A DNA stretch of 64,000 nucleotides, from assembly GCF_002854065.1 (NCBI RefSeq), contig NZ_CP024147.1. One strand, written 5' to 3'. Position numbers and translations under genes: made by a program. The notes below the pieces were generated by a model. The model saw nothing but the letters and a program-made list of their open reading frames with translations, had not been told where the DNA came from and did not search any database. Origin of the DNA: Escherichia coli. GTDB taxonomy: Bacteria; Pseudomonadota; Gammaproteobacteria; Enterobacterales; Enterobacteriaceae. This document shows positions 8,106-9,475 of the stretch, in pieces (the stretch's first letter is position 1; each line of letters starts with the position of its first letter).

Positions 8106-9475
8106 TTGAGCCTGTAAAACGTACCACTCGCGCTTATCGTGAAGAAGCAATTATTAAATCCGGTATGAACCCGTTCCTGCTGGATAGCGAAGATGTGTTT
8201 ATCGATTTACTGACCGACAGCGGCACCGGGGCGGTGACGCAGAGTATGCAGGCCGCGATGATGCGCGGCGACGAAGCTTACAGCGGCAGCCGCAGCTACT
8301 ATGCGTTAGCCGAGTCAGTGAAAAATATCTTTGGTTATCAATACACCATTCCGACTCACCAGGGCCGTGGTGCAGAGCAAATCTATATTCCGGTACTGAT
8401 TAAAAAGCGCGAGCAGGAAAAAGGCCTGGATCGCAGCAAAATGGTGGCGTTCTCCAACTATTTCTTTGATACCACGCAGGGCCATAGCCAGATTAACGGC
8501 TGTACCGTGCGTAACGTCTATATCAAAGAAGCCTTCGATACGGGCGTGCGTTACGACTTTAAAGGCAACTTTGACCTTGAGGGATTAGAACGCGGTATTG
8601 AAGAAGTTGGTCCGAATAACGTGCCGTATATCGTTGCAACCATCACCAGTAACTCCGCAGGCGGTCAGCCGGTTTCACTGGCAAACTTAAAAGCGATGTA
8701 CAGCATCGCGAAGAAATACGATATTCCGGTGGTAATGGACTCTGCACGCTTTGCTGAAAACGCCTATTTCATCAAGCAGCGTGAAGCAGAATACAAAGAC
8801 TGGACCATCGAGCAGATCACCCGCGAAACCTACAAATATGCCGATATGCTGGCGATGTCCGCCAAGAAAGATGCGATGGTGCCGATGGGCGGCTTGCTGT
8901 GCATGAAAGACGACAGTTTCTTTGATGTGTACACCGAGTGCAGAACCCTTTGCGTAGTTCAGGAAGGCTTCCCGACGTATGGCGGCCTGGAAGGCGGCGC
9001 GATGGAGCGTCTGGCGGTAGGTCTGTATGACGGCATGAATCTGGACTGGCTGGCTTATCGTATTGCGCAGGTGCAGTATCTGGTCGATGGTCTGGAAGAG
9101 ATTGGCGTTGTCTGCCAGCAGGCGGGCGGTCACGCGGCATTCGTTGATGCCGGTAAACTGCTGCCGCATATCCCGGCTGATCAATTCCCGGCACAGGCGC
9201 TGGCCTGCGAGCTGTATAAAGTCGCCGGTATCCGTGCGGTAGAAATTGGCTCTTTCCTGTTAGGCCGCGATCCGAAAACCGGTAAACAACTGCCATGCCC
9301 GGCAGAACTACTGCGTTTAACCATTCCGCGCGCAACATATACTCAAACACATATGGACTTCATTATTGAAGCCTTTAAACATGTGAAAGAGAACGCGGCG
9401 AATATTAAAGGGTTAACCTTTACCTACGAACCGAAAGTATTGCGTCACTTCACCGCAAAACTGAAAGAAGTTTAA
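8106..9475 (+). pseudogene. tnaA: Tryptophanase gene tnaA, 5'-truncated by IS1 (promoter, tnaC leader and about the first 17 codons missing)
   Basis: Reading frame immediately right of the IS1 end translates ...[41 protein letters not shown], i.e. tryptophanase starting at an internal codon. Confidence 0.9.

Follow-up and report, generated by a model that had tools for sequence, protein, structure and literature searches.

Loss of the 5' end of tnaA at an IS1-bounded inversion joint in an Escherichia coli lineage: a probable three-step origin of a tryptophanase pseudogene

The lack of indole production in Shigella has been put down to insertion sequences that damaged the tna operon, as reportedly found by Rezwan, Lan and Reeves (2004, J Bacteriol 186:7460). 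The locus described here resembles the cases attributed to that study in that an insertion sequence destroys the tna operon, with an indole-negative phenotype that is predicted in our case, whereas the genomes carrying the present allele are mostly labelled E. coli. Within E. coli, IS1 is found at no fewer than four positions in or beside the operon in unrelated complete genomes (GPEC1446, ECZP248, STEC384 and JX21CE8; L001, L013, L014 and L015, respectively), where it is annotated as interrupting tryptophanase and lies upstream of tnaC, in the leader, at codon 44 or near the 3' end of tnaA. Unlike the locus studied here, the rest of the operon is in place on both sides of IS1 in those four genomes. 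The tna operon looks like a recurrent IS1 target. Work ascribed to Reif and Saedler in 1975 and to Turlan and Chandler in 1995 reportedly established the classical intramolecular transposition of IS1, with its adjacent deletions and inversions. The present lineage shares with those classical rearrangements the retention of the element, nested flush end-points and two inverted IS copies around an inverted segment; compared with them nothing in the sequence is unusual, and one-step and two-step routes fit it equally.

The window (the whole 64-kb stretch of DNA that was analysed) carries the following features on either side of the truncated tryptophanase gene:

1-7337, plus strand: distal end of the inverted segment, with a hypothetical gene, uhpA, uhpB, uhpC, uhpT, a DUF1198 gene and a porin remnant
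6264-7337, minus strand: 3' remnant of a LamB-family carbohydrate porin gene, 358 of 459 codons, cut by the IRR of IS1
7338-8105, transposase genes on the minus strand: complete IS1 of IS1B type, 768 bp, both termini read directly
7353-7856, minus strand: insB', ORF in IS1
7775-8050, minus strand: insA, ORF in IS1
8106-9475, plus strand: 5'-truncated tnaA pseudogene, nt 47-1416 of the gene with its stop
8165-9475, plus strand: longest remaining tnaA ORF, 436 aa from Met36, its product annotated in databases as 'tryptophanase'
9566-10813, plus strand: tnaB, low-affinity tryptophan permease, intact ORF of 415 aa, common allele

The preliminary description had IS1 cutting off the 5' end of tnaA at about codon 17. 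The truncation is confirmed and its exact place is codon 16: base 8106 is the second base of that codon and the element adjoins the gene at nt 47. In the intact allele the sequence crosses the breakpoint as ...CGTGTTA/TTGAGCCTG, i.e. ...CGT GTT A/TT GAG CCT G, and from 8106 to 9475 the window agrees at 1370 of 1370 positions with E. coli strain 100416, whose tnaA is intact (nt 47-1416 of that gene). TnaA residues 16-471 constitute the sole tblastn match in the window; the full-length protein of 471 aa, which includes the N-terminal strand formed by residues 12-17, is not encoded there. The 740 bp that normally lie 5' of the breakpoint (promoter, tnaC, leader and codons 1-15) found no match within the 64 kb, in agreement with the initial view that tnaC, the tna promoter and the N-terminus of tryptophanase are missing at this locus, and the arrangement of a functional tnaCAB operon, with promoter, tnaC and the tnaA start codon upstream, is not present. 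The tnaA frame is open from 8018, inside IS1, and its first ATG, GTG or TTG is Met36 at 8165, upstream of which no Shine-Dalgarno sequence is recognisable (aaatccggtATG). A 60-bp tnaA probe matched 5327 places in 5320 E. coli genomes, the gene being single-copy in essentially all of them; judged by this count, a second copy in the source genome appears improbable.

The 436-aa product is also on record as 'tryptophanase [Shigella sonnei]'. Its exact look-up as a lineage marker was rejected, since unrelated frameshift alleles with a normal upstream context give the same product. Such a frameshift in the first 35 codons of tnaA was seen in other E. coli lineages (L007, L009, L011 and L012; ~9897-11311), where a 35-aa ORF overlaps the same 436-aa ORF and a ShET2-like gene lies between mnmE and tnaC.

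The element at 7338-8105 has the size of IS1 (768 bp) and its imperfect terminal inverted repeats (GGTGATGCTGCCAACTTACTGAT / GGTAATGACTCCAACTTATTGAT): the IRR begins at 7338 with GGTAATGACTCC... and the IRL ends at 8105 with ...GGCAGCATCACC. The insA and insB' ORFs overlap at TTTAAAAAAC, which is the A6C frameshift site (plus-strand gttttttaaa, ~7784-7793). The sequence is 100% identical to RefSeq-annotated copies of IS1B, a common variant found in many E. coli that gives no clue to the host lineage. As had been stated beforehand, insAB transcription points away from tnaA; insA, insB' and the element's own promoter (CTGCCA-16-TATGAT in a consensus scan) all lie on the minus strand and read leftward. 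No target-site duplication of 8-9 bp surrounds this copy, because the nine bases on its left (ggagccgtc) differ from those on its right (ttgagcctg). Another copy, 100% identical, lies further along the window beside an effector gene:

16908-19022: type III effector remnant, ORF of 704 aa, 5' end lost to the second IS1
19178-19945, minus strand: second IS1, with the sequence and orientation of the first

This second IS1 replaces 515 bp, including the first 136 bp of the type III effector gene (802 aa when intact); larger deletions are found on both of its sides in E. coli CUWW06, a genome considered below.

The two flanks of the first IS1 come from distant places. Positions 1-7337 are identical, at 7337 of 7337 positions, to 31471-38807 of E. 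coli 100416 in ascending order, and 8106-19180 and 19946-50860 match the same genome at 99.95-99.97%, from 5073204 in descending order. In E. coli 100416 a distance of 46.3 kb separates the two breakpoints, which are on opposite strands, and between them lie tnaC, the ShET2-like gene, mnmE, yidC, yidD, rnpA, rpmH, dnaA, dnaN, recF, gyrB ... ilvBN and uhpABCT. The porin remnant translates into residues 103-459 of the intact porin of strain 100416, its junction with IS1 recurs in L018, L019 and L020, and partial proteins on record run from the IS1 end into the porin (VGVIT/DGSYNG). Relative to tnaA-mdtL, the uhpABCT-porin flank has the opposite orientation to that in every reference examined; IS1 is flanked by two distant loci that are joined the other way round. 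Given this reversal, and given that the genes in between are essential, the IS1 at 7338-8105 marks one joint of an IS1-bounded inversion of ~46 kb that carries dnaA-gyrB ... uhpABCT. Neither of the two window junctions occurs in 5426 complete RefSeq E. coli genomes. A simpler history would have IS1 inserting into tnaA and then deleting everything upstream, with loss of the tna 5' region and no inversion; the absence of that region from the window is what it predicts, and adjacent deletions by IS1 do occur in this lineage, as seen in CUWW06. Such a deletion, however, would remove the essential genes dnaA, dnaN, gyrB, rnpA and yidC, and it does not fit the reversed uhpABCT-porin flank; moreover CUWW06 keeps the segment, inverted between two inverted IS1 copies. 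We regard this history as highly improbable and retain the inversion.

The inversion joint lies 35 kb from oriC (13-mers at 43359-43407), on one replichore. The inversion would have moved dnaA from ~43 kb to ~73 kb from oriC and would have left dnaA-dnaN-recF-gyrB, ilvBN and uhpABCT head-on to replication and rpmH-rnpA-yidC-mnmE co-directional with it. The turning around of the dnaA-dnaN-recF-gyrB region beside oriC is a side effect of the inversion. As for the other flank, the island adjoining uhpT (DUF1198 gene, carbohydrate porin, cellobiose-type PTS, GH1 hydrolase and LacI regulator; window 5793-7337 and L017 37263-43936) is rare in E. coli, a 1.6-kb probe from its uhpT-proximal end, made of the DUF1198 gene and part of the porin gene, having matched 27 of 5426 complete genomes. 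Among the Klebsiella/Raoultella-like matches of the porin, the uhpT-adjoining island is common.

Both joints of the inversion can be read in E. coli CUWW06 (NZ_CP182139.1, a complete genome of 4.65 Mb from wastewater), which over 13.9 kb shows 2 substitutions relative to the window and has identical IS1 copies at both places where the window has them. Its left joint runs nlpA(-), IRL-IS1-IRR, ShET2' IS2 ShET2' mnmE(-) yidC(-) ... rpmH(-) dnaA(+), and its right joint ... uhpT(+) porin', IRR-IS1-IRL, tnaB' mdtL(+), so two IS1 copies in inverted orientation enclose a segment whose orientation is opposite to that of its flanks. At the reciprocal joint (L050 17410-20082) IS1 sits between nlpA and an internal fragment of the ShET2-like toxin gene, which is itself split by IS2. 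The 5' part of the porin gene, the PTS island, adeD, adeQ and their neighbours, tnaC and the 5' part of tnaA have been lost there, and erosion therefore proceeds at both IS1 copies. It had been suggested that the displaced tnaC-tnaA 5' fragment would lie next to another IS1; in CUWW06 a second, inverted IS1 is indeed present at the far joint, but tnaC and the 5' part of tnaA have been deleted from it.

With respect to the source genome of the window, the 113-aa fusion ORF predicted for a porin-5'::IS1 joint is not on record, so further change at that joint is probable. When the N-terminal part of the porin was used in a homology search for the reciprocal joint, frameshifted fragments alone were returned. 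Two other proteins were of no use as markers of this joint: the PTS IIA protein is too common, and the LacI variant is confined to the uninverted sister lineage of strain 100416. A class of contigs of ~44 kb was considered as the IS1-to-IS1 inverted segment and rejected; their lengths fit the interval from IS1 to IS2 (the IS2 in the ShET2-like gene, as in CUWW06), and the class is therefore uninformative on the inversion.

Four states were found at the same IS1, in genomes that are near-identical where compared. The first is represented by contigs of ~97 kb that start at the porin-IS1 junction (L019; protein P0013, with the VGVIT/DGSYNG reading). In one of them (L046, 96,989 bp, equal to the distance from the porin breakpoint to an rRNA operon) mdtL lies at 49,125, exactly the distance expected of the uninverted layout, and tnaC-tnaA-tnaB are intact. 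This layout, together with the intact tnaCAB, therefore places IS1 in the porin gene first, with tna still whole, and from the contig layout we infer that porin::IS1 with an intact tna operon is the ancestral state. The second state is that of the NCTC assembly GCA_900449015.1 (4.74 Mb), in which the IRL adjoins tnaA at nt 14, in codon 5 (IRL/AACATCTCC; IRL/AACATCTCCCTG). The third is shared by the window and an independent assembly (L022), with IRL/TTGAGCCTG at tnaA nt 47. Apart from 33 bp (AACATC...GTGTTA) that are present in L018 and absent from the window, the IS1 end being identical, the NCTC locus is 99.97-99.98% identical to the window, and both have the second IS1. In the fourth state, that of CUWW06, tnaA has disappeared together with most of tnaB, whose last 26 codons now adjoin the IRL (window 10734); the porin side of IS1 is trimmed by 216 bp more, and the second IS1 is trimmed on both sides.

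The end-points of the series all coincide exactly with an intact IS1 terminus, and no microhomology accompanies the loss of the 33 bp. Adjacent deletion flush with the end of the element is established IS1 behaviour, and the flush nested losses bear the signature of IS1-mediated adjacent deletion. The codon-5 junction of the NCTC assembly and the codon-16 junction of the window could instead go back to two inversions that started independently from one porin::IS1 ancestor, given that the donor junction is common to both, that intramolecular IS1 transposition could strike tnaA twice and that at least four other tna operon sites carry IS1 in other E. coli; the tnaA 5' fragment ending ...ATTGAGCCTG would in that event adjoin the IRR at the reciprocal joint. 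We consider this unlikely, since the two genomes share the second IS1 as well as their 99.97-99.98% identity, two strikes 33 bp apart across 46 kb would be an improbable coincidence, and CUWW06 shows directly that nested flush deletions occur at this IS1 end. The recurrence of these junctions bears likewise on the soundness of the assembly. The window carries two identical IS1 copies at a distance of 11 kb, and repeats of this kind cause mis-joins in short-read scaffolds, so a wrong join across the repeated 768-bp element might be suspected; yet the porin-IS1-tnaA adjacency is also found in the independent NCTC assembly, the exact IS1-tnaA junction recurs in L022, and the complete CUWW06 genome carries an equivalent, more eroded joint. 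An assembly artefact is hardly credible.

The reading that we favour, with a probability of about 85%, is that IS1 recently turned tnaA into a null pseudogene, in three steps and within a single E. coli clone. IS1 would first have entered the carbohydrate porin gene beside uhpT. The porin IS1 would then have inverted the ~46 kb that separate the porin gene from the start of tnaA, through either intramolecular replicative transposition into tnaA or recombination with a second inserted IS1; this event would have left one IS1 between the 3' part of the porin gene and codon 5 of tnaA and would have moved the tna promoter, tnaC and the first codons to the far joint, beside the inverted IS1. The left end of IS1 would finally have deleted 33 bp more of tnaA and so produced the codon-16 junction. 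What is observed is the anatomy of the junction, the topology of the inversion, the nested series of alleles and the integrity of the sequences; from these we infer the order of events, the loss of enzyme activity and the indole-negative phenotype.

Tryptophanase, and hence indole from tryptophan, is very likely absent, because the remnant is left with neither its native promoter nor tnaC-dependent induction, offers no start codon ahead of Met36 and is missing the N-terminal tetramer strand. Residues 12-17 of TnaA form an inter-subunit beta-sheet of the non-catalytic interface, with contacts by Val15 (PMC2770544), and TnaA constructs without the N-terminal subdomain were undetectable, none of the truncations having made indole (PMC4323232). 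A Met36-initiated product of 436 aa may be possible in principle and would be without residues 1-35.

The fate of tnaB depends on the sequences that could replace the lost promoter. The encoded TnaB is the commonest allele of the protein, found on >1000 contigs, and the first account of the locus was right that the gene is intact but stripped of its operon promoter, the tna promoter being unmatched in the window. Two promoter-like sequences lie upstream of it:

8092-8120, plus strand: candidate weak IS1 hybrid promoter, with TTGGCA in the IRL, 17 bp, and TAAAAC in tnaA codons 19-21
9476-9505, plus strand: promoter-like TTGACA-18-GATATT, 10/12 in the consensus scan, in the native tnaA-tnaB spacer directly after the tnaA stop

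An outward -35 in the IS1 inverted repeat can build hybrid promoters (PMC8764528, citing Prentki et al., 1986). The candidate at the tnaA junction has the outward -35 (TTGGCA, 8092-8097) that is known from the IS1 hybrid promoters of Prentki et al. (1986) and of afaA in ST131 (PMC8764528), here 17 bp from a -10-like element (TAAAAC, 8115-8120); in contrast to those promoters, that element is poor, with a 4/6 match and the final T missing. The consensus scan did not report this candidate because of that missing last T. At the ancestral codon-5 junction nothing comparable stands at 17-bp spacing (CTGAAC). The spacer site may be a putative minor internal tnaB promoter; a literature search for a documented internal tnaB promoter yielded just one mention of a 'PtnaB' site, unmapped. 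The earlier statement that no obvious read-out promoter replaces the native one is thus upheld for the IS1 promoter, which leads away, but needs qualification for the outward TTGGCA placed 17 bp from a weak TAAAAC. Owing to these two sites (the IS1 outward -35 with TAAAAC and the TTGACA-18-GATATT spacer site), low-level unregulated transcription of tnaB from weak fortuitous promoters may be possible. The sister genome CUWW06, however, has lost most of tnaB with no harm apparent. That the 33-bp flush deletion, by placing the outward -35 exactly 17 bp from TAAAAC, created a constitutive IS1 hybrid promoter expressing TnaB without tryptophanase is very unlikely; if it were so, the cell would import tryptophan and neither degrade it nor make indole. 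IS1 insertions are classically polar. Transcription from upstream reaching the tnaA remnant is unlikely, because a strong terminator follows uhpT and the transcripts would have to cross IS1 in antisense.

It may be asked whether the locus still works in part, with the hybrid promoter transcribing the remnant and either a Met36-initiated TnaA retaining some activity or tnaB being expressed constitutively. The outward IS1 -35 is documented (PMC8764528), the 17-bp spacing is right, and the remnant and tnaB are without further mutations. On the other hand, the -10 has no conserved final T and failed the consensus scan, Met36 has no Shine-Dalgarno sequence, the tetramer-interface residues 12-17 are missing (PMC2770544) and variants without the N-terminal subdomain are unstable and make no indole (PMC4323232); in addition, tnaA and most of tnaB are missing altogether from the sister genome CUWW06, an argument for their being dispensable. 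Partial function is in our view quite unlikely, and the null pseudogene remains the preferred reading.

The closest genomes are labelled E. coli (100416 from stool, CUWW06 from wastewater, and 1-250-04_S3_C2). The names attached to exact protein fragments of the lineage are mostly E. coli, some entries with the same porin fragment being Shigella dysenteriae, and because of these names we describe the host as a lineage of E. coli in which IS1 is active rather than as an identified Shigella or EIEC; the mention of Shigella/EIEC lineages in the preliminary description serves as background. The change at tnaA is ordinary pseudogenisation, of a kind well known to end indole production in E. coli and Shigella, and it leaves current understanding unchanged; what it adds is the mechanism, an inversion joint with nested flush deletions, and the allelic series. 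Indole is both a diagnostic trait and a signalling molecule, and the locus adds one more documented route to its loss in E. coli/Shigella. The lineage offers a clean natural series at one IS1 copy, from insertion through inversion to successive flush deletions, in which a single IS1 is seen progressively eroding a locus.
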